Source: Nemertoderma westbladi
Lineage: Eukaryota; Animalia; Xenacoelomorpha
DNA: 62,439 bases
NCBI GenBank assembly: GCA_032718475.1
Contig: JAUCBJ010003334.1
Location: 1 to 62,439, forward strand
Direction: 5' to 3'
The position numbers were made by a program, and so were the translations under genes. The notes under the pieces were generated by a model that made no database searches, was not told the DNA's origin, and saw only the letters and a program-made list of their open reading frames with translations. How positions within the stretch are numbered: the first letter of the stretch is position 1; each line of letters opens with the position of its first letter. Positions 174-56,559 of this stretch are shown here, piece after piece.

Positions 174-863
174 ATGGCTAACGACCTCAACGCGGTCGCC
201 ATCAAACTGCCCCCGTTCTGGACGGAAAACCCATCCGTCTGGTTCGCGCAGGTGGAGGCCCAGTTCCAACTCCGGAGGATTGTCGACGACTCGACAAAGT
301 ACTATCACGTCGTCGCCTCTCTCGACCAGCCGACCGCCGCTCGCCTCCTCGACACACTCACCGCTCCGCCTACAGATGGGAAGTACGAGGGACTGAAGGC
401 GAGGCTCCTCGGGACTTTCGCCCTGAGTCGGCGGGAGCGCGCTGCGAGACTCCTCCATATGCGTGGGCTGGGCGACCGCAAGCCGTCCGAACTCATGGAC
501 GAGATGCTGGGGCTCCTCACCGGGCACACGCCGTGTTTGCTGTTCGAGCAACTCTTCCTCGAACAGCTCCCCGAGGACATTCGGCTACAAATCTCCAACG
601 ACTCTTTCGAGGACCCCCGCGCCCTGGCTGCGACCGCCGACGTTCTTTGGTTGGCCAAACGCCAGGGACAATCCCAACTGGCCGGCGTGAACAGGGGGAT
701 GACAAACTCGCGTCGCCCCAGGGACTCCTCCACAAACTCCTCCGGCACTGCTCAGCCTGACACCAAAAGCGTGTGTTACTACCACGCTCGGTTCGGTAGC
801 GCTGCCAAGCAGTGCAAGGCGCCGTGTTCCTTCCCGGGAAACGCCCCGACCAGCCGACGGTAG
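174..863 (+). CDS. gag: Gag protein
   Basis: KLPPFW...[10 protein letters not shown]-terminus, [12 protein letters not shown]-terminal [18 protein letters not shown] zinc motif typical of invertebrate Gypsy gag. Confidence 0.93.
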
Positions 864-3800
864 CCGCGGCGTCGACTGGTCGATACAAACAGCGGGATAA
901 CCTCCTCTACCTCTGGGACCGGAACTCCGGGCGCCACTTCCTCGTGGACACCGGCGCCCAGGTGAGTGTGTTCCCCGCCAGCGGATTCGACACCCGTTCC
1001 GGACGTACTGGGCCGCCGCTCCGCGCCGTCAACGGATCATCGATTCGTTCCTACGGGACGCGCTCTATCCCCCTGCGGTTCAACGACCGGCGGACCCACT
1101 GGGACTTCGTCATCGCAGACGTCCCCCAACCGTTGCTTGGGGCTGATTTCCTCTGCGACCACGCCCTGATGGTTGACGTTAAGGGGCAGCAACTCATCGA
1201 CATGGAAACTTTCCAGCCGATCCCCCTCCGTTGCTCCTCCTCCACCATCCCGGGAACCCATCCTCACCTCGCGTCGACCTCCGTGGACCGAGTTTACTCC
1301 GACCTCCTGGCGGAGTTCTCCTCCATCACGACGCCGACCTTCTCGGACTCGTCTACTCGCCACGGCGTGGAGCATTACATCCCGACCGCCGGTCGCCCCG
1401 TCCACGCCCGCGCTCGACGACTCCCGCCGGATAAACTCGAGATCGCGCGGGCGGAGTTCAGCAAGATGGAGGAGATGGGGATTATTCGCCGTTCGAATAG
1501 TCCCTGGTCGTCTCCCCTCCATATGGCGCCCAAGCCGGCCGGGGGTTGGCGCCCCTGCGGGGACTACCGTCTCCTCAACGACGCCACGACCCCCGATCGC
1601 TACCCAGTCCCGCACATCCAGGACTTCTCGGCGCGTCTCGCCGGGGCCACGATCTTCTCTAAGGTCGACCTGGTGCGGGGCTACCACCAGATCCCCGTGG
1701 CCCCCGGCGACGTTCCCAAGACCGCCGTTATCACTCCGTTCGGACTCTTCGAGTTTGTCCGGATGCCGTTCGGCCTCAAGAACGCCGCCCAGGCCTTCCA
1801 ACGCCTGATGGACTCCGTCTGCGCTGGGTTGGACTTCCTCTTCGCGTACCTGGACGACATTCTCATCGCAAGCGCGACCCCCGAGGAACACCTCGTCCAC
1901 CTCCGCCAACTCTTCCAACGACTCCAGGACAACGGCCTCGTCGTCAACCTGGCGAAGTGCGAGTTCGGGGTGGCGGAGATCCAGTTCCTCGGACACATCG
2001 TCAACGAGTCCGGAGTCCATCCGCTCCCGGACAAAGTGGAAGCCGTCCGCTCCTTCCCTCGTCCAACCACCACTAAAGGGTTGCGGGAATTTATCGGTAT
2101 GGTAACGTTTTACCACCGATTTATTCCCGCAGCTGCTGCCACCATGCAGCCCCTTTATGCCGCCGTCGCCACCAAGGTTAAGGACGTCGACTGGACTCCC
2201 GAACTCACCGCCGCTTTCGAGTCCTCCAAGCGGGCCCTCGCGGACGCCACCATGCTCGTCCACCCCCGCCACGACGCCCCAACCTCCATCACCACCGACG
2301 CCTCCGACTCCGCAGTCGGCGCGGCCCTCGAGCAGTGGTCCGATGGGAAGTGGCGGCCGCTCGCCTTCTTCAGCCGCCAACTCCGCCCTCCGGAACGGAA
2401 GTACAGCGCCTACGACCGCGAACTCCTCGGCCTGTACCTCGCGGTCCGCCACTTCCGGTATTTCCTAGAGGGCCGTCCGTTTGTGGCCTATACGGACCAC
2501 AAACCGCTGACCCACGCGTTCGCCAAGGTCACTGACCCCTGGTCTCCCCGTCAACAGCGCCACCTGGCGTACATATCTGAGTTCACCACCAATGTACGTC
2601 ATGTTGACGGGAAGGACAACCAGGTCGCGGACGCCCTCTCTCGCAGCTTCGTGGGCCATCTGTCGACCCAACTCGGGGTCGACTATAAGGCCATGTCGGC
2701 CGCCCAACGGGAGGACGACGAACTACAGGCCTTCCGGGCAAACCCTGGTAGCCTCGATCTACGTGACGTCACACTCGCGGACGATGACGTCACGCTCCTC
2801 TGTGACGTCTCTACGGGCCGACCTCGGCCGATAGTCCCCAGCACGTGGCGCCGCCACATGTTCGATGTGGTACATTCGCTGTCCCACCCATCAATCCGCT
2901 CCACTAGGAAACTCCTCTCCGAGCGTTTCGTCTGGCACGGCCTGTCCAAACAAGTGACGAGCTGGGCCAAGGCTTGCGTCGCCTGCCAGACCTCTAAGGT
3001 TCAACGCCATATAAAGGCCCCCCTCGAGACATTCTCTGTTCCTCGACGCCGGTTCGACCATGTCAACGTCGACCTGGTAGGGCCCCTCCCTCCATCCAGA
3101 GGCTCCACCTACCTGTTTACGATCGTCGACCGGACTACTCGTTGGCCCGAGGCCATCCCGCTCGCCGACTCCACAACCGAGAGCTGCGCCCGCGCTCTCG
3201 TCGCCCACTGGATCGCCCGGTTCGGCGTACCGGTCGAACTATCCTCCGACCGCGGCAGTCAGTTCACCTCGGAGTTGTGGGCCGACGTCAATAGACTCTT
3301 CGGCACCAAACTCCACCGGACGACGGCCTACCATCCGCAGGCAAACGGCCTGGTGGAACGGTTCCACCGTTCCCTCAAGGCCTCCCTTAGAGCCCGACTA
3401 ACTGGACCAAACTGGGTCGACGAACTGCCATGGGCCCTTCTGGGCTACCGGACCGCCCCCAAAGAGGACCTCCACTGCTCGTCGGCCGAGCTGGTCTACG
3501 GCGAGCCACTGACGGTGCCTGGCGACTTCGTTGCCTCGCCAACCGACCCTCCGAACTCGACAGCTTTCCTCCCGGGCCTCCGCAACCACGCACGGCAGTT
3601 CATGCCCACACCAACCTCCCGTCATGGCCAACCCAACTCGTCAGTGCCGTCACAACTAACAACCAGTGACTATGTCTTTTTACGCACTGATGCTCACCGC
3701 GCTCCCTTACAGCGGCCCTACACCGGGCCGTACAAGGTCGTACAGCGCGGCTCAAAGACGTTCGTCATCGAGGTGGGCGGGCGTCAGGAGACCGTCTCCA

Positions 3801-3997
3801 TCGACAGACTCAAACCGGCCCACCTCGCTATCGATGAACCCGTCATTGTGGCCATCCCACCGCGCCGTGGTCGACCACCTACAGTGACACCCCCGGACCT
3901 CCCTCCCCCCAGTCCCTGCAATTCACCCGAACCACCGCAAACTACCATAGCAACTCGAAGTGGGCGGGCCATCCGGCAGCCGGACTATTTTTATTAA
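812..3997 (+). CDS. pol: Pol polyprotein (protease, RT, RNase H, integrase), probably made as a Gag-Pol fusion
   Basis: LVDTGA protease, YLDD RT, TDAS...ELL...TDH RNase H, HSLSHP...CVAC, DLVGP/SDRGSQF/VERF integrase, GPY motif. Confidence 0.98.
836..882 (+). promoter_or_regulatory. Programmed -1 ribosomal frameshift signal
   Basis: Slippery G_GGA_AAC (836-842) in the gag frame, followed by a stem-loop (CGACCAG/CTGGTCG, CGACG/CGTCG); pol is in the -1 frame. Confidence 0.85.
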
Positions 3998-9482: not shown

Positions 9483-9543
9483 AATCCATCTCATTGTCCT
9501 CAAATCCATCTCATTGTCCTCAAATCCATCTCATTGTCCTCAA
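9483..9543. repeat. 20-bp tandem repeat x3 (AATCCATCTCATTGTCCTCA)
   Basis: Directly visible. Confidence 0.9.
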
Positions 9544-9663
9544 AATCTGGGTCATTAACTTAATATATTTATCAGTCAGTGATTGTGTGGTCCTTGCTGG
9601 CCCCGCCACTCCAGCTGAAATTAATATTGGGATGAGATGTTCTCTTTAATATTTTGAAGTTTC

Positions 9664-10822
9664 TGTAAAAGCTTTTGCGTAATTAACCGGTTATTTTCCC
9701 TTAAAGTACTCTGTAGTTGGTTTGCCAGGCATAAAAAGGCCGTGTCCTTGCTGTACTGGTGTTTTAGAGGACATAAAAGTCATTTCTTCTGTATTTGTAC
9801 TTTAGAGGACATAATCCGCAATTTCGGGACGCAATAAGCTCGATACTCTTGAAAACAGTGTCGCTACCATGACGACGGCTAACAGCTGATATTGCCACGT
9901 CGACATTTCTTTGTTTCTTTGTTCTCTCGTTGTTCGGTTGACCAATCAGAGCGTTTTTTGTCTCTGTGTTGGAGGTGGATACAGAACTCAGTAATTCAGT
10001 GTTATGTTTTTGCCCAGAGCCTAAGAACATCGGCTTTTGGCACCTCCGTATATCAGCATTCTTTAGCTTTACATTAGTAGGCTTAATTATAGAACGTATA
10101 TCTGTTATCGAGTCATCTCAGTTAACAATCCATAACTTACTTACCATATCTTATTAATATTACTGCTTTTACTGTCGGTTATTCGTTATATTTGTTGATG
10201 AAATATTATATCGGAATACTGATCAATAATCAGACACCCCACCTTCTTGATATACTAAAGGTTAGAGAGACCGGTTACAGATAAACGATTGCGACCTATG
10301 TTAAGTGGTTTGAAGTGAATCTAATGCTATTTGATAAGCACTACATGGGTCCGTTGCTGTTCTCTTTATATATGATAAAATTTAGTGAAGGTCGGCAGAT
10401 TAGTGTGCAGTATTGTGCAGCATTGTGTATGAGTGTAACTGATAACAAAGCATCTCCTAAAGAATGCGCCATATACGTTAATCTATAGCCTTTTCGTTGT
10501 GTCTAGTTTAAGTCATAACTCTGTTTACATATTTAGAGCGCCACGTCCTAAAGGAACTGTTAATATTTCCCGAAAGTGAATAATATTTGTCAGAGATTAT
10601 ATATTACGATCAGTCGAATAATACGGTAGGCTTACACCATCAATCATTAAGCTTCCGAATTCAGTCTCCCGGGTATATCCAGCGGGTGAATGATTGCGCA
10701 TAGACTGGCTTCGGCTAATGTAGTGTGTCAAATACTCGTCATAAGCTAAAGAATATATATCATCCAAAAGACATTCTAATTTTGGCAGGTTAAACTGTCA
10801 AAGGTCTTCAAAAGCGCAAACA
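9664..10822 (+). repeat. 5' LTR of BEL/Pao element 1
   Basis: TGTAAAAG...GCGCAAACA; about 3 substitutions noticed versus 27091-28249. Confidence 0.97.
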
Positions 10823-11096
10823 ATAACAGATATTGCTTCTGGATTGCGGTGTAAGCAATCTAGTCGAAAGTACCGGTCGACCGGTAACCAGTAGGCCTGA
10901 CTGCCTGATCATCCGGACCGGTACCTACAGTAGTACAGGTACAGCAGTATTATTCGATTGTGGTATTGTATACCGGTAGGCTGTTTAAGAGATTAGGGAC
11001 TGTACACCCCTTGTTTCTTTTAGAGCTTACTTATTTCTGTCAGTTTTATTTATTTGTAGGCCAGTATTGAGCAGAAGGCGTGTAAGCCTGCTCAGA

Positions 11097-11650
11097 TTGT
11101 ACAGCTAATTTGTAGGCTTGACTGTTGGCTAACTGTTGTTAAGTCTGAACGGATTGCAGTGCATGTAGAGTGTATGTCCGATAAAGAACGGTTAGGAAGT
11201 AGGGCCAGCCATAGCTGTAAGGTAAACCCCCATCTAAAGAATAAGTCGTACTACTGGGTTAGAACGCTACTACTTAACCATTTCGGAGTCTGCATGTCCT
11301 GTAGTGTATTTGGGCTTGATAGTAGTCTGCCATCGTTTAGTCTGTATTTTGTTTGTGTAGTCTGTACGGGTAGTGTATAATTTTATTTAGATAATTTGTA
11401 GGCTGGATAGTTGTCTGGCTATTGTTGGGTTTGAGGAAATTTCGGTGTGTGTAGAGCATCTGTCCGATAAAGTGCTAAGTTAGGAAAGTAGGGGCTTCAT
11501 ATGCTGTGAGGTAAACCCCCTGTGAAAGAATAAGTCGTACTACTGGGTTAGAACGCATACTAACTAATCATTTCGGAGTCTGCATATACCGTAGTTTGTT
11601 TAGGCTTGATAGTAGTCTGTCAGTATTTGGTCTGCATTTTGTTTGAGTAG
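11097..11650 (+). ncRNA. Two tandem ~270-nt long stem-loop RNA units in the 5' leader
   Basis: Diverged direct repeats (~286-bp period); each pairs end-to-end using G-U pairs and compensatory changes. Confidence 0.65.
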
Positions 11651-12629
11651 TTTGTACGCGTAGCGTAATATTTATTATTCAGAGTTTATGCGATTATTCG
11701 CAACATTCATATCCCCAAGTTTATTCCTACAGTAATTGTGTTTGTTATACATACCGTTATAGTTAAACTAACCCCGGTACTACATCAGGGCTGCTCGGCG
11801 TAGGTAAAGACTGGAGATTTTGTGCTTTGGTCACTCCGGCAGATACCGTGGTTCTTTTAGCTGTTCAAGTATTTTTAACTACTGATTATTTGTTGTACAA
11901 GTACTTGTACCTAATTTAGGGTTTAGTGTACAGTGCTTTCCAAAAGCAATTAGTGTGTAGGCAGTATATTTGTGTTGTAAAGTGGTTAATAGGCACGTTG
12001 GTTCTGGTAGACCGCGGTAATTAATCTCTAGGTAGGAACACTCCGTGATACATAACGTAGTACCTATAGCGATACGGTTATAGGTCGTCAGGCGGTGGTA
12101 TTTTCCTATCTGGACAACGCAGTATATTTACTACTACTTATTATTTTCAAATACCGTAGTAACCTGTCCGTTGTAATAACCAGATATTCTAACCCTTTGT
12201 TAGGCTGGTTAGTAGACTTCTTGTAAAATTACCCTAAAAATTCGTATTTGTGTATTTGTAATTAAATTTTTGTGTTTATTTAGAGATTGTAATCTCAACC
12301 CGAATTGTACGTAATTTGTAGTATTAAGTAACTTAGGTAAATTAGAATTATTTGTTTTAGTGTCTAACAAGTAGCACTCCACTGAGAGCGCACAGCTTAT
12401 GTGTAGTGACTCCCCCAGAAATAATAACATTTATTTCAAACGTTGACGAAACCCATTAAACGGGTATATATATATTATAAATCAACCCAAACGATTTATA
12501 AATAGTAGGCCTGCCTTACAACAATTAGGTCTCAATATCAGTTGGAATACTGCTCAAATAACGGTAATAAAGTAAGTTAAAGTAACCAAGTAACCCTTAA
12601 AATTCAGAAATTCAATTATTCTAAAATAA

Positions 12630-12885
12630 TTGACATACCGGTATTTACAATAGGCTTATTACATTTATTTCTATAAATTTTAGGTTGAAATCATACCGGT
12701 ATTCTGTAATTAATTCTAGTTAATAATTATACTTATATATACTATAAGTGTAAACTGCATACCGGTATTCACGATAGGCCTATTATATATTTATATATAT
12801 TTGTGCTAAAATTACCTACCGGTATTCTGTGATAACCTAGTCTGTAATAAAATTTATATATACTATAAGCATACCGGTATTCTAA
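12630..12885. repeat. Degenerate ~60-bp tandem repeats centred on palindromic TACCGGTA
   Basis: TACCGGTATT at ~12637, 12694, 12761, 12817, 12872. Confidence 0.7.
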
Positions 12886-13015
12886 TATATTATATATATC
12901 ACGCTACACTGAGTAGCAGTATCGGTAATTAATTACTAGGCTAGCAGTTAATACTGAATTACTAGACTTGCTTAGACTGTAATATAGCAGTAGGTATACA
13001 ACTGTACAAACAAAC

Positions 13016-14011
13016 ATGTCTGATACTAAGCAGAACCTGTCAGACAGTTTATTAGATGTAACTATCTGCGACTCAGATAAGGGTGTAGAACCGTCTACAC
13101 CTAAATTCAGTTCACCTCCCACTGTGAGGAAGGTCATCCCTCCAGTAGTAACAACAGAACCTAGGCTGGTCCAACACCGTAGGTCTATCATAGGCACTCG
13201 AGCTCAGGTCAAGCGGGACCAAGAAGCAGCGGAACAGCAACAACCCGCGAGCCAAGAACTTATTTCTCAGCGGCCCGACAGCTCCAGTAGTGGAGATACT
13301 GTAGAGCTGACACCCGAGTGCGGAGCAAGGATGACGGATGCGGTTTATTCGGATCCCCTTCTCATCCTTCCTGCAGCCGTACTCACTAGGTTATTGATCG
13401 CGGTGGAAGAACACCAGATCGATTGGGCGAGAAGTAAGCGATCAACTAAAGATAGTTATGAGGGATACACAAGGGAAGAACTGAAGTCTATGGTCGAGTC
13501 GCAATGGAACTTCCCCGGACCCAGACTCCCGTTTGATTTATCAGAACCTGCCTGGGAAGACATACACCGGATGGGAGTAGCCAAGGAGACCACCGATCCA
13601 GCTGTGTGGAAGAGGTCCGCAGCCGGATACGCACAGGGATTCTTCAGCTCTATGGAGCGAGTAGAAAAACAACTGTTTCAACAACCCCAAGGACCTCAAG
13701 AGCAGGGACAACTGCTTTATCAAGTTAGAGAAAGAATTCTACGAATCAGGCTAATCTTATCAGCCTTTGAGGAGGCTTCTAAAAGAAGACAAGACACGTC
13801 GTTGCAAGTTGCTGTAAAGACTTGGTTTCAACGGGTGAGTCTCCAGGTTCAAGGAACGGCTCAGTGGAAAGCTCAGCTAGAGGAGCGCTCAACCCATGGA
13901 GAATCCACGGATATGCTACCTTTTCCCAAGTGGAAAGTGAAGCGACCGCAGAGAAGCCGCATAAGAGGGATGCCATTGACATTTATCTGTCAGACTATCA
14001 GCGTTTTTTAG
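13016..14011 (+). CDS. ORF1 / N-terminal Gag extension of BEL element 1 (overlaps the main ORF, which is in the -1 frame)
   Basis: 331-aa ATG-initiated ORF after the leader; the 13822 ORF opens on TTG with its first ATG ~460 bp in, suggesting the two are joined by a frameshift. Confidence 0.7.
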   Translation: MSDTKQNLSDSLLDVTICDSDKGVEPSTPKFSSPPTVRKVIPPVVTTEPRLVQHRRSIIGTRAQVKRDQEAAEQQQPASQELISQRPDSSSSGDTVELTPECGARMTDAVYSDPLLILPAAVLTRLLIAVEEHQIDWARSKRSTKDSYEGYTREELKSMVESQWNFPGPRLPFDLSEPAWEDIHRMGVAKETTDPAVWKRSAAGYAQGFFSSMERVEKQLFQQPQGPQEQGQLLYQVRERILRIRLILSAFEEASKRRQDTSLQVAVKTWFQRVSLQVQGTAQWKAQLEERSTHGESTDMLPFPKWKVKRPQRSRIRGMPLTFICQTISVF

Positions 14012-17000
14012 GAGATGAAGAGTTGAGGAGAAGGCTAGATGGACTTAGCCCTAATAGTGAAGGAGCCCAGCGTGTGTTGGACGCAATTGATGTGGATAGG
14101 TTAGCGGCGAACCAAGCTAAATTCGATGAACAACTCCGCATCGCTAGAGACCAAGAAGAAAGGGTGAAGAAAAAACGCATAGAAGACAGAAAGAAAGCAG
14201 CAGTAGCAGCTGCCGAAGCGGAAAGGAAAGCAGCCGAAGAGGAAAGTAAAGCAGCCGAAATGGAAAGAAAAGCGGCAGCGGCAGCGGCAGAGGCGGAAGC
14301 GAAAAGAAAAGCAGCCGAAATGGAAAGAAAAGCAGCAATGGCAGCGGCAGAAGCAGAACGGATAGCGGCTGAAGAGATCGCCCAATTAGAACTGGAAAAT
14401 ATTCAGGAGAATCAAGACTGCATAAATAAACAGTTAACAGCTAGTAATATGCAGATGATGAATCGATCTACTCCCAAAAGACAGGGATATACATCATCTG
14501 AGGAAGGCGATACCACCGATACTGAAGGCAAAGGAAATAGATCTCGTCTAAGCAGACGTAAAAGAACATTCCACCGTCAGAAATTGCCTGATTTGCCTCT
14601 AGCTGTTAGAAGGCAACTAAATAACACCAACTTAGGTAGTACAGAACCCACAGACCAAATAATTACAATAGAAAGACTCCCTACTATAGTAGATGAGCCT
14701 GAAATAATTAGGCCTGTTCTTGAAATCACCCCTTCGGTGATAGAGACACCTGTGCTCCCTGAACCTACCTCTAAATTCCCTCTGCACAGCACTAAGCTAC
14801 CTGTGCCCAGTAGAACAGCCCATGAGACAGTTCAGGTCCTGGACTCCGAGCGAAATATTCATGATTTGTCGCCCGTTGTCCCTCGTCCGCCCGCTACAAC
14901 GTTGGCGAATCCCGCTTCGGCGGTCGAATGGGTGGAGGAGAGACGACGGGGGATGGATCTCCTGCTCGGACAGATGCAGGAGACCGTTCAGCAATTCAAG
15001 GGCACAGTAAGGGAAAGTAGGCTAGAGTTGCAAGAAGTGCAGCAAAGTATCGCGCTAGAACGCGATAAATTAGTAAATACACAAAAGGGTATACCACCAC
15101 CCCCTGTAACAATGTGTCAACCTGTTAGGTCTGAAGTATCTCATGCGCAAGGTGTGGAGCCTACACGCATCTATACTGCTAGCGAAGTAGAAACTCCTAT
15201 AGTGAACCCTATTAAGGGTAATTATAGACCTGTTGATAATGATATTCCCTATAGACCGGATCATAATCCGAGAAATTTATATACCGATAACTCGATATTA
15301 AATAACACGATGGCCCAAGAAAGTTTTACGCGTCAAATGGCTAGAACCGAAGCCCGGCAAGCGGTAAAGGTGGGAGTGATCGTCAAGTTCAATGGAGATG
15401 AGATGAAATGGTTACCTTTTAATGAATATTACAAAGATAACATACAGTACTCTGTGCTATCTAATGGAGAGAAACTTAGATTCCTCATCGAGTGCTTGGA
15501 AGGATCTCCCAAGTTAATGGCGTTAAAGTTTATTGGACATCCAGGCGGATTAAGACAAGTTTGGGATACACTAAACATCAGGTATGGTAATAGGAATAAC
15601 ATAGCTGGGTATTTGTATGCAAAGTTGGTAGCGCCCCGAAAGTTTATTAGCAGCGGGATTATAGAGTTTTCCGATGAGATTCAGGAGATCTGCAGACAAT
15701 TAGATTGGCTAGGTAAGTCTAATGAGTATCAGAGTGCTATGGTTATTAGAGCAGTGGCTTCTACTTTACCGAAGGGTGGAGTAGGTACACGCTGGGATAA
15801 GAAAGTGTTATATATGATGGAACAACAACGACGAGACCCTACCATGGCTGATCTCATGTCATTCCTAGATGGAGAAGTGAAATTACAGCTCCTGAAACTG
15901 TCCAGAGAGAAGACACCGGAAAACAAGGTAAGTGAAAAACCCGTCTCTAGGAGAAAGGTAACACCAGTGTGTTATACAGATGACGGCGAAAGCCAGACTT
16001 CTCAAGGAGAAGATAGCGGGAAAGACGCTGACAGATCTTATTACGTAAATAAAATGCCTAAAGATCAGGTAAGTAAATTCAAGTCTCGAACCAATGACAG
16101 GAGAGAACAGGTAAGAAAAATTCCTCCTACGTCTCCCAAGAGAATTCAGGTGAGAAAGCCCGAAGAAAAAGCAAGTGTGCACAATGTTACGCAAAATAAG
16201 GTAAGTAACATCAAACCGAAATATGCGCTATGTGATGGGACCCATCGCTTGAATATGTGTGATGAATTCCTGAAGAAATCATTAGCGGAGAGACGGGAAG
16301 TCATGTGGGATAAGCGGTTGTGTTATAATTGTCTCAGACGAGGACACCAACGGCGAACCTGTTACTCCGACACAAGGTGTGCAAAGTGCGGTGCGAAACA
16401 TCATATCTTGTTGCACACTGAATTCGAGCGAAATAGTCCGAGTCAGGTAAGTGATTCCGAACTACATGTCCAATTCAGTGATGTGAACGACACTGATCAA
16501 TCTGAGATGGAAGGATTCTATACAGACGAGTTCTCCGACGAAAACGAATCCTGTTACATGATAAATACCGCAGTGTATCGAGCACTCACTTATGAAAAAG
16601 ATACAGACATTGACCTCACTCTAACTACTTCTGATCGACAACCATCTTGGAAAGCGCCAACTTCCAATGTAGGGATTAGAGAATTTCCTGTGGTACAGGT
16701 AAGGGTCCACGGACCAAAAAGGAGTTATGTAGTGAACGCCCTCCTTGACTCCGGTAGTACAGGAACATTCATCGACAAAGAGCTAGCTGAAGACATATTC
16801 GCTGGACAACCCAAATTCCGAACTAAGCTAAACATGTCAGGGATTATGCAGGTTTGGAAATCTACAGTAACAGCGGATTATTATGTAGGTGCGTTGTCCA
16901 CCCCCCAGGACGAACTAGGAGAACATAGCATAAGGTCAGTGAAAATGGTGGCTATAAAGAACTTCGCTACTACTCAAGCAGACCTTTATAATTGGGACGA

Positions 17001-20000
17001 GGATGAGAGCATCCAACATCTTAAGATACCTCGATTCCAGACTGATTATCCTGGAGTGCAAATACTCATCGGCCAAAACGCGCATGAGGCGCTCGAGACA
17101 TTGGAGAAACGGCCTGCTCAACCGCAGCCACTACAAACCTATGCGGTAAGAACTAGAGTAGGTTGGTACTTTACTGGCCCTTCCCGTAGAACTCTCATGG
17201 AAAGATTACCGAAAGATCAGGTATATCAAGTGCGAGAATGGGAAGTTGAGAACAGTGAGTTCGACGATCCAACTGAGGGAACTCCATACTCCTCAGACAA
17301 CGACGATATACATCAACTTTTCGATGAGGAGAATGCCATCGATCTCCTTAAGGAAAGCGAGACTTGGCAAAATCAAGTGAACTTATGTCAACTCCTTCTC
17401 CCATGCGAGCGAGACGACTATAACAACGAGCTTAATGACGTCATTGAACGTTATAATGCCAAGACTCGGGATGAACACGCCGTGAGATTCTTTACTCAAG
17501 AGGTCGTAGAGCCCAACTCCTACGATAAGGCCCTATCGGTGGAGGAAGAAAGAGCCAAGCAGATCCAAGCGACAACTACTCGTTTTCTTAAAGATCAAGG
17601 TAGATATGAGATCGGTCTTCCTTTCCGAAAGCGAGAACCAAAGTTCATTAACAACAGACCTTTGGCAGAGAAAAGAATTGCTCAACTACATCGACGCCTT
17701 ACGGCAAATTCTTCACCTAAAGAAATGTATCAAACGCAGTTGAAGAAGTTTATTAGCAAGGGATATGCGGAGCTAGTACCGGAAGAAACCCCTATAACTG
17801 AGAGAACGTATTACTTAACTCACCATTACATTCCCAAACCCGGTAAACCCCATGAAGTACGAGTGGTGTTTGACGGTTCTGCCCTTTATATGGGCCAATC
17901 TCTTAATTCTGAATTGTTACCCGGACCCAACTTACTCCAATCCTTGTTGGGAATACTATTAAGATTAAGACAATACTCCATTGCTTTCGCCTCAGATATA
18001 GAAGGCATGTTCTTACAAGTCAGAGCGCTGGATAGGGATCGAGATAGCCTACGATTTTTGTGGTGGCCTGAAGGAGACCTCAATAAGAAACCTGTGGAGT
18101 ACTGGATGACCATCCAAGCCTTTGGGATAATCTCGAGCCCTTCAAACGCCTGTTCCGTGGTGCGCACCACTGCGGATGACAACCGAGACGCCTTCTCTAA
18201 AGAGGTGATCGACAATATCAAACGAGACATCTACATGGACGATAATCTGAAGTCCCTTCCATCAGTAGAAGAAGCCATTGAGGTCGCTAAAGGAACGGTA
18301 GAATGCTTAAAGAAAGGAGGATTTCGATTAACTAAATTCACTAGCAACTCCCGTGAGTTTCTGGAGTCGATCCCGGTAGAAGATCGAGGAACAAAAGACC
18401 TAGATCTAATAAAGGATGATCTCCCAGAAACTAAGACCCTTGGTTTGAAATGGGACACAGAAAGAGATATCCTGTTTTTCCAATTAAAACAGCGAGATAA
18501 TCCAGTTCGGACTAAACGGATTTGTTTAAGTATCCTGAGCACTTATTTCGATCCATTGGGATTTATTAGCCCAGTTATATTGATTGCTCGGAGTTTAGTA
18601 CAACAAATGTGGCTTGAAAACCACTCATGGGACGATCCACTTAAGGGAGAATTATTAAAGAAGTGGATGAAATGGGAAGATTCTCTACCAGCCATCGAAA
18701 ACTTTATAATTTCCCGTTCATATTTTGGTCATGTTCTCCCTACGTATTCATATCAACTCCATGTGTTTGGAGACGCCAGCGATATGGGAATAGGTATAGT
18801 AGCCTACCTAAGGGTGGAAACTCCGGACGGAATTAAAGTCGCCTTGGTTACCTCTAAGGCATTGATAAACAACAAGTTGAAAGTTCCTCGAGCGGAGTTA
18901 AAAGCGGCTCTATACGCTACAGCCATCGGCCGGAATGTAACAGAACAGATAGACTATCCCCTGGAGAAAACTGTCTATTGGACCGACGCTTTACTCGTGT
19001 TGGAGTATATAACCAATGAAGTCTGTCAGTTCAGCGTCTTCGTTACCAACAGAGTAGCTATTATACCCAGTCGCACGACGATGGATCAATGGAGACATTG
19101 CCCCGGAACGATTAATCCAGTGGACATCGCTTCCAGGGGAGCAACTCCACAAGAACTGGTAGATACTCCAGACTGGTTAGGTGGACCCGACTTCCTCTAC
19201 AAAGAAGAAGAAGAATGGCCTCCTCATCTTACTACAGCAGAAATTAGACAGGCCAAGGGAGCGGAGAAAGTCAAGCCTAAAACTCAGGCGAGTAAATCGA
19301 AGTTATTCAAACCCACAGTAGATCTGTCTGTACTACATACTTCCGGAGACGACGCTTTGGATCAGAAACCCACAGCCACAAATAAACCCGTTGTGGAAAT
19401 CCGTGATAAGGATTGGAAATCTGGCATACCAGACGTCTCGCAAGGACTCTCACCTCTTCTGCAGAGAGCGATACATCACTACAGTTCCTGGAATCGGCTC
19501 TGTAAGGCCGTTACATATTTAAAGAGATGTTTTCACCATCACTACTCTGAGATGAAAGCAAAGGGTGATACCGCTCCAATCACATCAGTGCAGGTCCATG
19601 TTATTAAAGATCTTCCCCAATATAAGATACCCGACAGGTTTCTGAAGGAGAAGATCAGTTATCAGGAGCATGAAGAAACCAACAAACAGATGCTGAGACT
19701 CTTACAATGCTATGAAGATTCCGATAAGTATTTCCTGTTGTTGAGAAATCCACAGATGCGCTTAAGGGATCGTTTCTCTAGCACAATGATAGATGGGTTG
19801 ATACGTGTTGGAGGAAGGTTAACGAATGCCCCATTATCCTTTGATACTAAGTTCCCCATACTCATTAGAAATCTTGAAATACAAGTCAAGATGATTGTAG
19901 ATGTTCACAGCAAACTTTATCATGCTGGTAGAGAACGAGTTCTTAGCGAAATTCGAACTCGCTATTATTTTTATAAACCCCGTAGAGCTCTGAACCAAGT

Positions 20001-21117
20001 TCTTAGGAACTGTATACCCTGTAGGAAAGCATTCAGTAGGCCTTTGACACAGCGAGAGGCAGAATTACCTAGGGAACGAGTAAGCTTTTATGAACCACCC
20101 TTTACTAATACCGGTGTGGATTTATTTGGCCCTATTAAAGTATATCGTGCTAGGACTATAGTCAAGAGATGGTGTGTAATCTTTGTTTGTATGACTTGTA
20201 GAGCCATCCATCTCGATATGGTGAACGATTTATCTACCAACAGCTTTCTATTAAGCTTACGACGACAGATCGCTCGCTTTGGCACTAGTAACACGATGAG
20301 ATCTGATAAGGGAACAAACTTCATTGGTGCCAACAATGAAATCAAAGCTTACGTCAAAGATTGGAACCAAAGACAGGTGGACGACCAACTATGAGTAACA
20401 GCGTCTAGTTGGACCTTCAACGCCGCCGACGCCCCTTGGTGGGGAGGAAGTTGGGAGAGATTAATAAGAAGCGTGAAGACAGCATTTCATTTTATAGTGC
20501 CTTGCCGCGCTTATCTCACCGACGAACTTTTGCGGACGTTAATGGAAGAAATCGCCGCCTATCTCAACGAGAGACCGCTTATGCCAGTCTCATCGAGTCC
20601 CGATTCCCTGGAAACGCTAACACCCGCGCACTTCCTTCTGAAGAAACCTGTAGCCATGCTCCCACAATCGAAAATCACAGACGGAGACGAATACTGCCGA
20701 CAAACTTGGCAACTCATGCAGTTGTTATCCCGTCGTTTCGCTGACCATTTCGAAAAACATTATCTGCCCACGCTACAACTTCGAACTAAGTGGTTTGCGC
20801 AGCAAGAAAACGTCAGCGCTGGAGACATGGTTCTTATTGTGGATGTAGATCTTCCACGTAAGCAGTGGCAGACAGGTCGTATAATCGAGACGCACATCTC
20901 GGATGACGGTTTGGTGCGATCGGTAGAACTCGTCGTCATGCGACGTAACTTCAAGAAACCGGGAATTGTCTTCGAGACGCAGCAGCTCAATCGCCCAGTG
21001 GGACGTTTATGTTTACTGGACAGAGACAGAGAACTCTCCGGAAACTATGGGAGACAAGACACTCTTCCCACGACCACCTCCCTAATCCAACAAACATCTA
21101 GGGACTCCCCAACTTAA
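13822..21117 (+). CDS. gag-pol: BEL/Pao Gag-Pol polyprotein with one in-frame TGA (20392-20394) inside integrase
   Basis: KFNGD..W gag core, three zinc knuckles (first one C>Y), LLDSGS protease, SDIEGMF/YMDD RT, FGDAS/PRAEL/WTD RNase H, HSKLYH..CIPC, DLFGP, SDKGTNF, WWGGSWERLI integrase; 20473-21117 is in the same frame. Confidence 0.95.
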
Positions 21118-21658
21118 CAACGGCTGGAGTGGGTGTGTGACCATATTACTTTATATTTGTATTTGTTTTATTTTTATATTTATGTATGTATTATTATGTA
21201 ATTTTATTTTAATCGTTTTATTTAATTTTATTTAGTAGTATGGTATTTTAGAGATTATTTAGTAGATTAGTGCAATATATATTCGCGTTTATTATTTAAT
21301 TACGTATATTATATATTTAGTGCGACGGCGAGAAATAATTCTTTTTCTCTTTCCTTACTGCCCGTATTACATTATCAATACGTGACTACAGTAAGATGAA
21401 ATCTTCGTACTTACTAAAGTACAATAAAGCCACTACTATATTCAGTATTATTGGTAGGCAGAGTATTAGGAATGCAAAGTTCAGATCCTCGTGTCTCGGC
21501 TAAACCAAGCTCTGGGTAGACCTTGGAAACGACTTGCATCTTCAAACTGACATTGCTTCGTGCAATATTGCTCTCATACCGTATATTAAATAATACATAT
21601 AGTAGCGTGATGTCCCTTTAACAGTAGCGTATAACGCAAAATAAATCTGTTAAACCCT

Positions 21659-21930
21659 TTGACCATCTGTAATTCTAGTCGATTAAGATATCGCGGCACC
21701 CACCGATATACTTGAAAGACAAATTTCTAGAATCAATGGTTAACGTCCCCAGACAAGTTCTGGAATAAACTGGTGCCCATCCTAAATATTAATTATTAAT
21801 ATTTACAAAAATCTGTCAAATATCAGATCCTTTAAAATTCTAGTCGATTAAGATATCGTAGCACTTACCGATACTCTTAAAAGGACAAAATTCCTAGAAT
21901 CAAGGATCCCAGTCCCCAGACACGTTCTGG
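21659..21930 (+). ncRNA. Duplicated stem-loop pair between pol and the accessory ORF
   Basis: Two ~105-nt copies with ATTCTAG/CTAGAAT, TATCG/CGATA and CCAGA/TCTGG stems; different but paired basal stems. Confidence 0.6.
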
Positions 21931-22568
21931 AATAAAATTGTGTCTATTTAACATTAAATAATAAAATTTACGGGAATAAATTTAAATTCAGATATTTTAA
22001 TGAATTTAATAAATTGTCATTTTAGTCAATTTATAACATTCCCAAAATTCCATTAATTAATAGATCATGGGAGCGGAGATTCACTCTATTAAGTGTATTT
22101 GTGTACGAGAATCTCCAATGTATAGTCAATAGCCGATAAAATTCATAGAATCATGTATAAAGGGGATATTGACCATTAAAGAATTACTATTAAATAGCAT
22201 CCCAGATCTGTATGCATGAGAATTACCCTAATTCTACCGCTAGCTTTCCATAATGTCACCATGGCAACAACCACGCTAGAATTAGAAGTGAGTTAAAAGA
22301 ACAATAGAAGGCATGCCCCATTGAATAGCATAGGGAATAAATAGCGCACTGCTAGTATCCAAGGATACATAATAAATACAGTGACATTCTGGAAGGTACT
22401 GACTAATGGACAAATGGCCCGAATGTGTGCAGTTTGTTGCAGTTGTGTTGAATTTGTGCGTTTGTAGGTGAATGTTACTACTAAGGTGTGTTTACAGTAG
22501 CGAGTCGCAATTGTGAAAGTAACCTTAACTCTCCAAGAAGAACCTGCAGTACATCTAAGCCTTTGGGA

Positions 22569-22676
22569 CGGACAGTGAAGTGACTTGTGCCGGTTATCGT
22601 TGTCGTTGTGTAGCTACATCGTTGGCGAAAGCACAGCGACGACGGTACATCGGCGCTGAGGATCTTACACTGTCCG
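22569..22676 (+). ncRNA. Long G-U-rich hairpin upstream of the accessory ORF
   Basis: CGGACAGTG/CACTGTCCG, GTGCCG/CGGCGC and 16-bp TATCGTTGTCGTTGTG/CACAGCGACGACGGTA stems. Confidence 0.65.
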
Positions 22677-22758
22677 GGGGCAAAAGAGGAGTAGGCAGCG
22701 ACGCCCGCTAGCCTAATATATACAAACTCATTATAATATTGATAAACTCATAGCAGAT

Positions 22759-25700
22759 ATGACTGAGTTGATAGAAGATGATCTTGGTATCAGAGAGCGA
22801 TATACTCTACCTTTACAAGCGTTTGTCGATAGCTTGACACGCGGCGACGCTGGTCCAACTACTACGGAGGATGATGGTCGTTATATCGAACCGCCAATGT
22901 CCCCGGAGCAACTTACGCGTGAATTGGACTATAGAAAGTTCACCGCTCGCTATACGCATCGTAATGGTACGTATATGGACTTCTTAACTACCGGCCATCC
23001 TATCGATTTACACGACATGGACGATGTGGATACCGAAAGGGAAATGGTTTTATTTAAATATCATACCCAACGGAATCGGAATGATAAGCCAAGAATAGAA
23101 CACGAGAACTCTATTCGAAACAGACTTGAAAGAGAAGACGTTGAAGAGCCGGATAAACGCAACGACTTCAACGATTATCTGGAATTCTTGAGAGAAACAT
23201 ACCTCAATATTGCCAGTCAACAAAATCTCGAAACTCGATATCCTCAAGGTATACATCATGATCCTATGATAGAACTCAAACGACTCTATTTCACTATGAT
23301 GTATCTTACCGCCGATCGACCGCTACCTGTCATCCCGGATAGCTTCGAACAGATGGAGGAATATTGTAAAACTGGAGAACGATCACCCGTGTTTCCTCTG
23401 CAGGACATGCGTCTTCGGTATTACTGTGACGAATGCCCTAGACCCAATCAGCAAACGGAAAGACATAAACATCCGCGGAGATGTTGCGCTAAACACAGTT
23501 TTACACGATATACTTACGGGAGTTTCGAGCGAAACCTGTTCGACGTATCCCCTGCGGTCGCTTGACTCAAGCGATCCTTGAACAAACCGATGATCAGAGT
23601 TCCGGAATACTCGGTCAGACCTCCGCATTCCTCAGTTAGACCTCAAACTCTTGACCCTAATAGTATCACGGATCCTCCCGAACTGTACTCACTGTTCAAA
23701 GATCTAGTGTTACCCGAACAGTTGATCGGTGGCACTCCGGTAGTAGGCTCACGAGACATTCGCCAACCCTACCTAGCTGGATTGGGACGTGGACATCTAA
23801 TATCGCCGTTTAACCCATACAACCGTCCCGGCTTCACCTCTATCCAACCCGTTACGGAAGTCGAAGAGAGCGTCGTACGAAACGCATTAGACGCTATTCG
23901 GCAGAAAATCGGAAAGGGAACGTACGATTGTTTGGAGAAGCGTAAATTGCAGCAACAAGTCCAAGCGGTAAAGGAATTAGCTTTACACCAGTTCGATAGA
24001 GAAATACAAAATCTTGAGGAGGACATCGAACGTGGACGAACCTACTCTTTACAAGAGTTTCTAGATGAGCGTCTACAACAACAAGCGGAGGAGAATCAGC
24101 TCGAGGAGAGACATATAGAACTGGATGAGAGAGAAGAAGCGGCTTTAGCTCAACCCGAAGCGCAAATCCTGATGACGGATCTCTACTCTAAAACCATTCT
24201 TCATCCCTCGATGGTTCCCCATTTCGGAGACAAACTTTTTGCGACGGCACAACCCCAACCGGTTGATATCAACCTAAGATCTCGAGATCTTATCGCCGAC
24301 GCTCCTATGTTGCAGCGTCCGCCCATCGAATCCGCTCGCGTCGATGGTATACTCGTTGAACCTCCGGACAATAGAGCAGATCTTGTCCGTCGCATGGTAC
24401 ACGATGTAAACATACGCGCTAGACCTTTACCGGACTCGTTTTATGGGATCAAAGATCACCCTTATTACGTCAATCTAAAACAATATTACATGGTAAAACC
24501 GGAAGATCCTACACATAGTCTGAAGTTTCTACCGTTAATAAATCCTCTCGATCTTGTCGAACTCGAACAACTGCAGAAACATCTGGATCAGTTAGTTAAA
24601 GTAAACTCGTTTCGAAAACCATATAATGTTTCCAGAATAGAGAAAGAAACAATACCTCCGTATAATCTTGATGGATTCATCAAAACTCGTTTAGTGCACT
24701 GGAATCTTGATGTGTTATTCGAGGAAGAAAGAATACAACGATATGGAGATGTGGAAACATATACCACACAATATTTAAAGTATAAAGACCTGCCTAATGC
24801 TAGCGAATGTGCTACCTTGTGGCATCCTGTGGGAATGACACTCGAAAACGCCACTAAAGAGTGGAACGAAACTCTTAACGTTATCGAGATGTATGGAGTT
24901 GTCACTTACGATAACGAAGGTAGCGTTCCGGTTGGAGAACTTGGAACTACGCGGATGATACACATACGAGGACTCGCTGGTTCTACCCACGTATTTACTC
25001 GAGCGTGTTCCGACGTTATTGATTATTCTTTTGAAACTCTTACTGAGACACAAAAGAAACTCCGACATGGACAATTTGAGCTCGCGCAGCGTTACGTCAC
25101 CGACACCGAGCGCAAACCGGCCATGGGTATCGATGGATCGATGTTACCCCAACCCGTGCTCGAGATGTTGTTTAACGAAGGAATCCTTAAAATCGGCTCA
25201 GCTGTTTATGGAGACCTACAGAACGACTTTCGGAATATGGAGAACATTCCATACCCCTTCGTTGATACTCAGCTGATTGCTCCTTGGGCAGAAGGCCGAG
25301 GTTTCTTCCTCACTATGTACGCCAATACACCCAGCGGTATTACTAAAGTACAACGAACCTCCATCGGACATCTTGCCTTTCAAGAATACGGATGGAATTT
25401 CAAGGTTGGAAATCCTATAAATTACCAACAAGTATACGGAGATCATTATTCTCGTTTATACTTTGATGGACCGTTGACCGCACCTGGCGCCGTGTATAGC
25501 TTTATGAGTGTTCCACTTCATCCCTCCTTAGCTATATACACGATCTTTGAAAACGCAGCACTTGCCGGTTGGCTAGCCGATGTGTGCAGTCGTACCATAC
25601 GCGCCCATCCCTTAATACTTGGAACCAAACTCGCCAAGTTAGATGAACACAATAAATTCATCCGCTTTGAATGTTTCAGGCGCTTTCTGACTCCATTCCG

Positions 25701-27012
25701 TAACGTTGATAGTCAGTTCAAGGACCGCGCTCTGACCAAACTCAGCCTGAGAGACTCAGCGGCGGAGAAGCTAAACAGCGCGGGATTTGCCCTTTTTCAG
25801 GACGTTTGTATACAGAACTTGCACTCATCTGTTATACAAAGACCCCGAATACCCACGGGTTATTCTGTCGTCGAAGTTCAGACAGTGGGTCCGCTTGCGG
25901 AGACGGCCGCACCTACCTCAGCTATGCAATTGGAAGACGAACCAATATGCTTAGAAGCTGAAGCGATTCAGCCTACAGCGCCCCTGAGCAGCGATAACGA
26001 CTACGTTTTAGAGTGGTATCAAGGTCCACAATGTCTCACCGCATACGATTATCGACACGCTAACTATGTTTCTCGAAAACGTTGTCGATTATGCGCATCG
26101 AGAGACCATTTCACTCCTATGGACTCAGACGTACCCTGCTCCTATTTCCACGAACAACCAATGATGGAGATATATTGTGCGTATTGCAGACTTAATAACT
26201 CTCATATTTTTGCAGTCTGCCCCCAATTTATGACTCAATGCCACCACTGTCAACTTAAAGGACATGCCAGTTATAATTGCCCCTTTAATCACGATTTAGA
26301 GAGCGTAGATGAAATGATTACCCTGCGCTACATCCGAGCTTGGGAAGCGAACGCGGATTTACATTGTGAGTCCCGTCATCGATACTACCCTGGACGCTCT
26401 TACGAGGGAGTTTACGCGTTCCATCCTTATTTATTCGCGTCTGTGGAACAAAAAACACGTACACCGAGTTACAAACTAATGAAGCGTGTTGGTGAGTGTA
26501 TTTCCACCAAATTCGTTCGAAAATACCTTAGGAACGTCAATCCTAACGATATTACTTCATACCATTTGATCAATTATATCCGTCAAGACCCTGAGTATGG
26601 CGATTTATTTATCAACTCGCACCCGGAGTTACAGGAAGTATCTCGACAGCCCTACGAATATCGAGCCCGAGAACGCGAGCTGGAAAGAACTATTAAACCA
26701 AGGAAGTTTCTCACCACTCACGGTCCGCCTACCGCCATTGTCCAGACGACCCGTCAAGGACCCGTAGGAGCTGCTGTCCTGAGGCGCGCCCTAAAGGCTG
26801 TTAGACCTCGCTCCACGGAAGTTGATATCGATCAACCAGGTACCTCGACCGGCGGATATACCGATCGCAATCCGAAACCTTCTGATGCAATTGTATTGCA
26901 CCCTTCACCCAGGAGTTATAGCCCTCCTAGTAAAGTGGCTCGCCCCAAAGAGAAAAGGACTCTTGCTAGCCTCAAAAAACTGCGTAAACGCCGTCCGCGT
27001 AAGAAAGACTAA
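22759..27012 (+). CDS. Accessory protein: DEDD-type 3'-5' exonuclease-like domain, triple CCHC-type zinc knuckles, basic tail; split by one in-frame TGA (23563-23565)
   Basis: ORFs 22759-23565 and 23578-27012 share a frame; VVTYDNEG, LPQPVLEMLFNEGILKIGSAVYGDL, FVDTQLIA, SIGHLA motifs; CRLC..H..C, CAYC..H..C, CHHCQLKGHASYNC; KKLRKRRPRKK. Confidence 0.8.
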
Positions 27013-27090
27013 CTGTTTAGAGTATTTTTATATTTTAGAAACTGTGATTTGTTATATTTTATAGACTTAAATCCCATTTTCTGGGAGCGG

Positions 27091-28249
27091 TGTAAAAGCT
27101 TTTGCGTAATTAACCGGTTATTTTCCCTTAAAGTACTCTGTAGTTGGTTTGCCAGGCATAAAAAGGCCGTGTCCTTGCTGTACTTGTGTTTTAGAGGACA
27201 TAAAAGTCATTTCTTCTGTATTTGTACTTTAGAGGACATAATCCGCAATTTCGGGATGCAATAAGCTCGATACTCTTGAAAACAGTGTCGCTACCATGAC
27301 GACGGCTAACAGCTGATATTGCCACGTCGACATTTCTTTGTTTCTTTGTTCTCTCTTTGTTCGGTTGACCAATCAGAGCGTTTTTTGTCTCTGTGTTGGA
27401 GGTGGATACAGAACTCAGTAATTCAGTGTTATGTTTTTGCCCAGAGCCTAAGAACATCGGCTTTTGGCACCTCCGTATATCAGCATTCTTTAGCTTTACA
27501 TTAGTAGGCTTAATTATAGAACGTATATCTGTTATCGAGTCATCTCAGTTAACAATCCATAACTTACTTACCATATCTTATTAATATTACTGCTTTTACT
27601 GTCGGTTATTCGTTATATTTGTTGATGAAATATTATATCGGAATACTGATCAATAATCAGACACCCCACCTTCTTGATATACTAAAGGTTAGAGAGACCG
27701 GTTACAGATAAACGATTGCGACCTATGTTAAGTGGTTTGAAGTGAATCTAATGCTATTTGATAAGCACTACATGGGTCCGTTGCTGTTCTCTTTATATAT
27801 GATAAAATTTAGTGAAGGTCGGCAGATTAGTGTGCAGTATTGTGCAGCATTGTGTATGAGTGTAACTGATAACAAAGCATCTCCTAAAGAATGCGCCATA
27901 TACGTTAATCTATAGCCTTTTCGTTGTGTCTAGTTTAAGTCATAACTCTGTTTACATATTTAGAGCGCCACGTCCTAAAGGAACTGTTAATATTTCCCGA
28001 AAGTGAATAATATTTGTCAGAGATTATATATTACGATCAGTCGAATAATACGGTAGGCTTACACCATCAATCATTAAGCTTCCGAATTCAGTCTCCCGGG
28101 TATATCCAGCGGGTGAATGATTGCGCATAGACTGGCTTCGGCTAATGTAGTGTGTCAAATACTCGTCATAAGCTAAAGAATATATATCATCCAAAAGACA
28201 TTCTAATTTTGGCAGGTTAAACTGTCAAAGGTCTTCAAAAGCGCAAACA
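27091..28249 (+). repeat. 3' LTR of BEL/Pao element 1
   Basis: Preceded by GGGAGCGG; followed by TSD GTTTC. Confidence 0.97.
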
Positions 28250-28299
28250 GTTTCAAATTATCGATCTGATAATCTATATGATATCTATAACTTACATAG

Positions 28300-33267: not shown

Positions 33268-33300
33268 TTAGATAAGTCGGTGAACACATGACTACAACAA

Positions 33301-33365
33301 TGGATTACCGTAAGAGGCAGTTCTGTATGGAGCCACCATACAGAACTGCCTCTTACGGTAATCCA
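33301..33365. repeat. Perfect 30-bp inverted repeat with 5-nt spacer
   Basis: TGGATTACCGTAAGAGGCAGTTCTGTATGG-AGCCA-CCATACAGAACTGCCTCTTACGGTAATCCA. Confidence 0.95.
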
Positions 33366-33616
33366 GTATGGAGTTCATGTGTTCATGGAGTCCAGTATGG
33401 TATTCAGTATGGAGGCCAACTGTAAAATATATGTGGCACCCATGGTCCACACTTATACTGTAATAAAGTCATTCATGGACCATGGAGGCCACCTATAAAA
33501 ATATACTTAGCTTCCACGGTTCAAATAATAAACAAGTAACATAATTATAATACTGTAGTATATTAATGTAGTATTTTAGCGCGAGCTAAATTTTGTTCTA
33601 ATACTTTCTTGTTTAT

Positions 33617-45275: not shown

Positions 45276-45282
45276 TGATGTT

Positions 45283-51725: not shown

Positions 51726-51763
51726 CGTATTGGGAGCTTAGTTCTGAAGTTCAGTACTGAAGG

Positions 51764-56239: not shown

Positions 56240-56559
56240 CAGTACCTGTCGGTGTCAAAATATCATTTCCAAAAAATTACAAACAATAAAATAAGGGAGA
56301 AGGAAAACAGTGAGACATCCTCGTAAACACAACCTATACTTTAGTAGGTACTTTTAGATCGTTGCAAAGAATCAACTCAATGAACTAACAACTAAAAGAA
56401 CAACTAAAATGGACCAAAATTTGCAAACAAGCGAAACAACGAAATGAGAGAAGGGTTTCATTTTCAAAGGGTTCGCCCGCTATCAGTATACTGTAGACCT
56501 GAGTACTGTAAACTGGTCAGCGTCCTTCCCATATATGCAGCCTAGCTAGTTTTTGCTAT

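Follow-up and report, generated by a model that had tools for sequence, protein, structure and literature searches.

Tandem sense-strand RNA rods in the leader of a giant BEL/Pao retrotransposon of Nemertoderma westbladi, a candidate packaging-type signal

The psi packaging signals known from retroviruses are groups of short hairpins, many of which include a palindromic dimer loop. The retroviral psi is a highly structured element of the 5' UTR, situated between the primer-binding site and gag and bound by the nucleocapsid (NC) region of a Gag that carries zinc knuckles (PMC5035971). In CaMV and RTBV, which are also reverse-transcribing elements, the leader forms a large stem-loop with a conserved sequence on top, the CaMV packaging signal is exposed atop this stem-loop, and a sorting of the RNA between translation and packaging has been proposed; the CaMV leader, with a single stem-loop and several uORFs, undergoes a shunt which requires a short uORF ending a few nucleotides before the stem base and which lands after the stem in a UA-rich, unstructured site (PMC5902531). 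The HIV-1 RRE, located in env, has a long basal stem that carries a branched head, with four to five stems surrounding a central junction (PMC5767303), the MTE of MusD resides in an LTR retrotransposon (PMC5767303, PMC5035971), and the direct repeats of RSV are a duplicated cis element that flanks src (PMC5035971). Among LTR retrotransposons with additional proteins, Cer1 of C. elegans encodes a Cys-rich protein, CERV, with H, M and G-protein-like domains, needed for export of the genomic RNA; the accessible portion of that paper contains no mention of an RRE, a stem-loop or a cis-acting element (PMC10309623).

The two rods described here lie in the 2.2-kb leader of a BEL/Pao element. Like psi, they are structured, occupy the 5' UTR between the primer-binding position and gag, and accompany a Gag with knuckles; they differ from psi in being tandem rods of ~70 pairs without a conserved palindrome. 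Like the CaMV/RTBV leader, they are large stem-loops with a conserved sequence at the head, but they come in two copies, have no take-off uORF and lie in a leader purged of AUG. They share duplication with the RSV repeats and residence in an LTR retrotransposon with the MusD MTE. Structured leader signals are already known in kind, and the rods are a new and well-bounded case. Literature on BEL/Pao elements, of which few subscription journals and repeat-database reports were covered, yielded no leader or cis-acting RNA structure.

The window, that is the whole 62,439-nucleotide stretch of contig JAUCBJ010003334.1 that was analysed, contains the element carrying the rods at 9664-28249 (18.6 kb), an LTR retrotransposon whose 5' LTR (9664..10822, + strand, 1159 bp) has 3 mismatches to the 3' LTR (27091-28249). 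Both LTRs are flanked externally by a 5-bp target-site duplication, and with so few mismatches the insertion is young. The gag-pol frame (13783..21117, + strand) encodes DUF1759, a protease, Peptidase_A17 (E 6e-36), an integrase zinc domain and DUF5641, and PF05380 is present in all of the best 120 homologues listed. These Pao-type domains, together with the paired LTRs and their target-site duplication, assign the host element on sequence grounds to BEL/Pao, in agreement with the BEL assignment of the preliminary description. In the reverse transcriptase region, the nearest database relatives are ~40-43% identical, the named ones among the matches listed being chiefly marine invertebrates; no BEL relative was found in the viral contigs searched. 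The gag-pol of the present copy is interrupted by an in-frame stop (20392-20394) in the integrase region. ORF1 (13016..14011, + strand) begins with the first AUG in strong context, with an A at -3, and gave no match in a Pfam search; the Gag sequence carries Cys/His knuckle motifs. At the 3' end of ORF1 (14004-14011), a run of six T precedes the stop, and the gag-pol frame is -1 there, which may reflect a programmed shift or a lesion. The leader is wholly covered by thousands of divergent contig pieces from four public runs, which belong to four different studies and carry two organism labels; this indicates a multi-copy family, contig depth in such runs not being equivalent to copy number. 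The sequence between the LTRs of such elements belongs to the RNA that gets reverse transcribed, which locates the rods in the genomic RNA.

The rods arise from a tandem duplicate of two units of ~290 nt each, starting 275 nt past the 5' LTR and placed between the primer-binding position and ORF1. The units align (11103-11391 with 11389-11683) with 78.7% identity over 296 nt (E 2e-60), and a MAFFT alignment gives 220 identical columns out of 288, hence an overall likeness of 76-79%. Rod 1 (11097..11360, + strand) is predicted to consist of a 5' arm (11097-11181), a branched head (11182-11282) and a 3' arm (11283-11360), and rod 2 (11383..11650, + strand) of a 5' arm (11383-11467), a branched head (11468-11572) and a 3' arm (11573-11650), with arms of ~80 nt, heads of ~105 nt and ~70 pairs per rod. 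The preliminary description, which had proposed diverged tandem repeats folding into long rods, is thus borne out on this point, and every pairing that it listed is found in the predicted folds; regarding unit bounds, rod 1 is corrected to close at ~11360, and rod 2 closes at ~11650.

Folding of the two strands separates them clearly. As RNA, unit 1 has a z-score of -4.17 on the + strand, a stability that none of 200 shuffles attained, and of -0.37 on the - strand; the corresponding values for unit 2 are -6.06 (again 0 of 200 shuffles) and +1.31. Unit 2, the only unit folded as single-stranded DNA, then gives +0.63 (+) and +0.57 (-). When the entire window was scanned for stems, both rods came out as the top-scoring ones among those found on the + strand only, the remaining strong stems scoring on both strands as DNA palindromes do. 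Both rods are still present when the complete 2.2-kb leader is folded. The leader is structured beyond the rods as well, with z-scores of -5.0 at 10784-11063 and -5.1 at 12604-12883 (12 shuffles per window), and the windows after rod 2 have z-scores of -0.6 to -0.3 in an AU-rich sequence of a type frequent by chance here. Between the LTR end and rod 1, the segment 10784-11096 is multi-hairpin (z -5.0 on +, -3.1 on -) and rich in ACCGGT and GTAC palindromes. Further downstream, at 12634-12881, the palindrome TACCGGTA occurs five times with ~60-nt spacing inside a diverged repeat which folds with z -5.1 on + and -3.2 on -, and a sixth copy is found at 10971; these palindromes could be DNA-binding sites or dimer signals.

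The composition of the paired arms points the same way. The 77 opposed rod positions comprise 46 Watson-Crick, 21 G·U, 2 A·C and 8 other combinations in unit 1, and 45, 26, 0 and 6, respectively, in unit 2, so that wobbles are strongly strand-biased (47 G·U versus 2 A·C over both units). One register is common to the arms of both units, and shifting it by 1-3 columns lowers pairing from 89.6% to 38-41%. Owing to the wobbles, the arm-to-arm duplex energies (-56 and -61 kcal/mol) are about half of those of a perfect duplex, the rod stems totalling a predicted -90 to -98 kcal/mol. Unbroken helices reach 18 and 19 pairs within the ~70-pair rods, which would suit a small-RNA precursor or a decoy for Dicer- or ADAR-type defences, as with the dsRNA decoy given by the CaMV leader (PMC5902531). 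We consider such a role very unlikely, since the Watson-Crick runs of the central stem do not exceed 4 pairs, making it a poor mimic of perfect dsRNA, and the conserved head loop described below would be left unexplained.

The two units also allowed us to examine how substitutions fall on the pairing. Across 154 rod columns, 34 substitutions separate them, and pairs are kept at 67 of 77 positions in unit 1 and at 71 of 77 in unit 2. When the same 34 substitutions are scattered, 58.1±2.3 (versus 71) and 57.9±2.3 (versus 67) pairs are retained; out of 20000 such trials, none reaches 71 and about 2 reach 67, in a test that compares two full sequences with a register derived from their own folds. 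Breakage of pairs at the random rate, which the preliminary description had named as evidence against its proposal, is not what is seen between the two units. Among 27 differing positions, 18 are paired in both units, 6 in unit 2 only, 2 in unit 1 only and 1 in neither. Two-sided changes number 4 against 1.3-1.4 expected (p about 0.03; 28 of 500 in another shuffle test). A-to-G drift of the ADAR type, considered as the sole cause, fits 10 A/G changes opposite U and fails on the C/U changes opposite G, on the two-sided changes and on the near absence of A·C.

Variation in other family copies, consisting of unlinked variants (40 of 68 rows) many of which equal the letter of the other unit, gives no significant signal either way: 15 of 24 rod variants pair with the partner in this copy versus 12.05 expected (p 0.08), 12 of the 16 common ones versus 9.3 expected (p 0.055), and, with partners from a single fold, 12 of 23 versus 9.9 expected (p 0.11). 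The arms are not poorer in variants, holding 24 of the 40 in 308 of about 572 positions. Single contigs in two public runs skip one unit or both, and they may be dead copies or result from mapping between units. The absence of a significant signal among family variants and the contigs without units would be in keeping with a neutral origin, in which a decayed inverted repeat was duplicated and has no present function. This explanation is largely refuted and hardly credible: decay of a palindrome should yield G·U and A·C equally, pairing is kept well over the null, and the rods score on the + strand alone, true DNA palindromes scoring on both. Taken together, the data support a sense-strand RNA structure maintained by selection and not a DNA palindrome, as had been proposed from the abundance of G·U pairs.

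Each head is predicted to contain the entering helix, one small variable hairpin arm and one weakly paired loop. The two units have in common their arms and the helix that leads into the head, and their head folds differ in detail. A run of 32 nt is identical in both heads (11236..11267 in head 1 and 11525..11556 in head 2, + strand; permutation p 0.006 for a 32-column identical run), and the conserved 30-mer inside it forms the weakly paired 3' loop of the branched head, a candidate protein-binding site. The sequence previously presented as a conserved apex is indeed conserved between units, but it is this 3' loop and not the geometric apex. In other family copies, the loop is polymorphic at 11249 (43% of depth, in one public run) and at 11264 (24%), and the small head hairpin of unit 1 shows 3 family variants in its 4-nt loop and none in its stem. 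Inspection of the heads revealed no palindromic 6-nt dimer loop common to both or family-wide; the sole palindromic 6-mer of head 2 depends on one base at which almost every other contig has a different letter, and the self-duplex of the conserved loop is weak (-12.2 kcal/mol). A long-range partner for this loop was also sought and rejected, the best duplex (-22.5 kcal/mol) falling within the range given by 8 shuffled loops (-22.1 to -27.3 kcal/mol). Likewise, a tRNA or Pol III gene in the leader was discarded, ARAGORN returning 0 hits and the B-box-like 9-mers picked by eye having no properly spaced A box.

Both heads keep the putative splice-donor sequence AG/GTAAAC, as AAG/GTAAAC in head 1 (11219..11227, + strand) and GAG/GTAAAC in head 2 (11508-11516, + strand). 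The rods could then control splicing by hiding acceptor-like arms and showing or hiding the head donors, thereby fixing how much genomic relative to accessory mRNA is made. Of the 4 AGGTAA sites in 9664-13100, 2 belong to the heads, and acceptor-like TTTGTAG stretches lie within the paired arms. We regard this as quite unlikely, given that the donors fit just 7 and 6 of the 9 consensus positions, that G/T-rich arms yield such motifs by chance and that no junction falls at the head donor sites among the contig joints listed, whether of DNA or presumed RNA origin.

The leader has a second conspicuous property, namely its scarcity of AUG. Over 10721..13015 (+ strand), 6 ATG are seen versus 37.2 expected. 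ATG is the most depleted of the 64 trinucleotides in 10823-13015 (6 versus 35.8 expected, P 1e-9), CAT being undepleted there (25 versus 27.4 expected), CTG and ATT being enriched in the leader zone, and the upstream flank having 82 ATG versus 86.3 expected. The depletion extends over all parts, with 0 versus 6.7 expected in 10721-11162, up to the first AUG of rod 1, 4 versus 10.0 within the rods (P 0.03, the units not being independent) and 2 versus 19.6 after them. All six leader AUGs have a pyrimidine at -3, hence a weak context, and those at 11501 and 12399 are missing in almost all of the other contigs. That AUG is purged on both sides of the rods and inside them is a sign of scanning ribosomes and argues against the rods acting as either an IRES or a CaMV-type shunt; the leader is probably scanned. 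On the simplest reading of these sequence features, ribosomes would scan through the rods themselves, the wobbles halving the duplex energy and the Watson-Crick runs being short. Stems of -90 to -98 kcal/mol are expected to hinder scanning, which makes melting of the rods by scanning ribosomes uncertain. A scanned 2.2-kb leader with two rods of ~-90 kcal/mol would in itself offer a test of what scanning ribosomes cross.

An IRES role had been among the functions suggested for the rods. Elements of that kind tolerate upstream AUGs and have the start codon close behind the structure. In this leader, the AUG-free zone opens inside the LTR, 376 nt 5' of rod 1, and runs on inside the rods, AUG being purged upstream as well as downstream, and the ORF1 start codon lies 1.35 kb past rod 2. 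For a shunt, in which ribosomes would bypass the rods, the AU-rich and weakly folding stretch after rod 2 might be a landing site, but no short uORF ends before the stem. We therefore judge recruitment or bypass of ribosomes by the rods highly improbable. An argument in favour of non-canonical entry comes from a possible start of the transcript. The primer-binding position (10823..10833, + strand) lacks a tRNA-type TGG, and its 11 nt are exactly complementary to 10098-10108 inside the LTR, which makes it a candidate for self-priming; 3 of 2182 leader 11-mers have such an LTR complement. Complementarity between LTR-adjacent and LTR sites is the self-priming arrangement of Tf1/Tj1 (PMC4600332), and a literature search on self-priming listed no BEL case. 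A transcript starting at about 10098 would carry nine AUGs ahead of the clean zone, in which case the RNA that is translated would have to arise from a second start site, lose a leader intron or be entered internally upstream of the rods. Since the depletion begins inside the LTR, such a second start, intron or entry is implied near 10720-10790, and a second start site has a precedent in Tf2 (PMC5341516).

A meltable structure in a scanned leader would become a switch once a protein clamps it. We therefore tentatively favour, as a plausible reading somewhat short of an even chance, that the twin rods are a genome-selection signal of the packaging type, bound by the zinc-knuckle proteins of the element and switching the RNA from translation to packaging. 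This reading draws on the psi-like position, the CaMV-like layout and the presence of knuckles in both Gag and the accessory protein. Ribosomes would scan the leader and melt the wobble-weakened arms until the nucleocapsid of Gag, or else the accessory protein with its knuckles, attaches to the conserved head loops, clamping the rods and halting scanning, and the clamped RNA would be diverted to particle assembly. The duplication would provide two binding platforms, and, thanks to the G·U pairs, neither the DNA nor the antisense strand would adopt the structure. The structured domain at 10784-11063, nearer the LTR, could instead be the real packaging signal. The rods are a sharply bounded, duplicated target for studying how one RNA is sorted between translation, export and packaging, and their two units already supply a pair of naturally compensated variants.

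The accessory protein is encoded by a 3' frame (22759..27012, + strand) made of a 268-aa ORF, one stop and then, in the same frame, a 1140-aa ORF (23590-27012). The latter has nucleocapsid-like CCHC knuckles, a DEDDy-exonuclease-like region and a basic C-terminal tail, its profile matching the HIV-1 NC (E 7e-5) and the Lin28 knuckles. A homologue search returned no close homologue and two remote ones, whose alignment with it spans the exonuclease-like motifs together with three CCHC knuckles; one of them has weak Pfam scores (DNA_pol_A_exo1, E 0.2; zf-CCHC, E 0.046). An Atlas lead to a DEDDy exonuclease plus CCHC scores 0.87, below the 0.9 mark, phmmer gave no match in the PDB, and a single-sequence AlphaFold model was set aside because of its pLDDT of 31; the DEDDy assignment is thus a lead only. 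The nucleocapsid-like knuckles mean that the protein could plausibly bind RNA. No ATG is present between 22473 and 22758, upstream of the frame, whose expression needs some sub-genomic RNA. The bdelloid LTR elements Juno and Vesta, of rotifer retrovirus-like lineages, likewise have an extra 3' ORF3 of the DEDDy type, and hairpin, UTR and tandem go unmentioned in the accessible part of their description (PMC5408684). For the DEDDy-type accessory proteins of retroelements, which lack an explanation, the rods are a candidate substrate.

The existence of this protein raises the possibility of nuclear export of the Rev/RRE type, in which it would bind the rods and allow unspliced genomic RNA to be exported. 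Splicing at the donor-like site of head 1 would destroy the element in the sub-genomic mRNA. The long basal stem, formed here by the unit ends, under a branched head has the gross shape of the HIV-1 RRE (PMC5767303), CERV of Cer1 provides a precedent in an LTR retrotransposon (PMC10309623), and the requirement for sub-genomic expression, the zinc knuckles with the basic tail and the donor-like motif kept in both heads are all compatible with it. However, the RRE-like label of the preliminary description holds for this gross shape and not beyond: the rods sit in a leader and not in env, their simpler heads lack the four to five stems around a central junction, and an Rfam search of 9500-13200 gave 0 matches at E up to 5. 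Furthermore, the accessory protein was not seen to resemble Rev or CERV, its closest lead being an exonuclease fold with CCHC knuckles. We consider export, the strongest competitor of the packaging reading, possible but rather unlikely.

Egalitarian offers another point of comparison, for its exonuclease-homology domain contacts double-stranded stem-loops without catalytic residues and its dimers require two stem-loops per transcript (PMC13186709). As the leader has two, the rods could be a transport zip code, read by a host adaptor of the Egalitarian/BicD or Staufen type that would carry the RNA to the germline, although they appear far longer than signals of this kind, and we find this highly unlikely. 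Localisation signals of the Egl-BicD type have a bent stem in which defined base pairs occupy two sites. By analogy, the element might encode its own reader of the twin rods, the exonuclease-fold zinc-knuckle accessory protein gripping dsRNA as Egalitarian does and needing both rods simultaneously before the genomic RNA is committed to being exported, transported or packaged. We put this forward as a doubtful, distinctly speculative proposal; if true, it would amount to a protein-RNA pair like Rev/RRE built of different parts, in a giant and possibly self-primed BEL/Pao element.

The occurrence of the rods outside the family was searched in several ways. Part of the conserved head had 0 exact matches in viral contigs and 0 in metagenome contigs. 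A set of 79 distant BEL loci, taken from the best 80 of 554 candidates, totals 596 kb and has 36-44% identity in the reverse transcriptase region. It gave no blastn match to the leader or LTR, and tblastn detected neither ORF1 nor the accessory ORFs in it; a covariance model built from the two rods had no match there, and no comparable AUG depletion was seen. Sense-only stems scoring at least 40 occur in 3 of these 79 loci, with a score of 41, versus 54 and 56 for the rods. As many of the loci are truncated, the conclusion is limited to the rods not being general.

Elsewhere in the window, a second BEL/Pao element, fragmented and with 27-42% identity to the first, occupies 38495-46853; the sequence immediately upstream of it yielded no rod-like stem. 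A tandem duplication of 2.46 kb (27769-32709, 99.3%) takes in the final 481 bp of the 3' LTR together with its flank. Strand-symmetric inverted repeats and tandem arrays with units of 21, 95 and 15 bp are found at 33281-33385, 55432-55797, 59450-59750, 47370-48140 and 56427-57265 and are unrelated to the rods. Finally, two further ORFs are likely of the Ty3/gypsy type, one with reverse transcriptase, RNase H and integrase at 800-3997 (+ strand) and the other with reverse transcriptase and RNase H at 48420-51737 (- strand).
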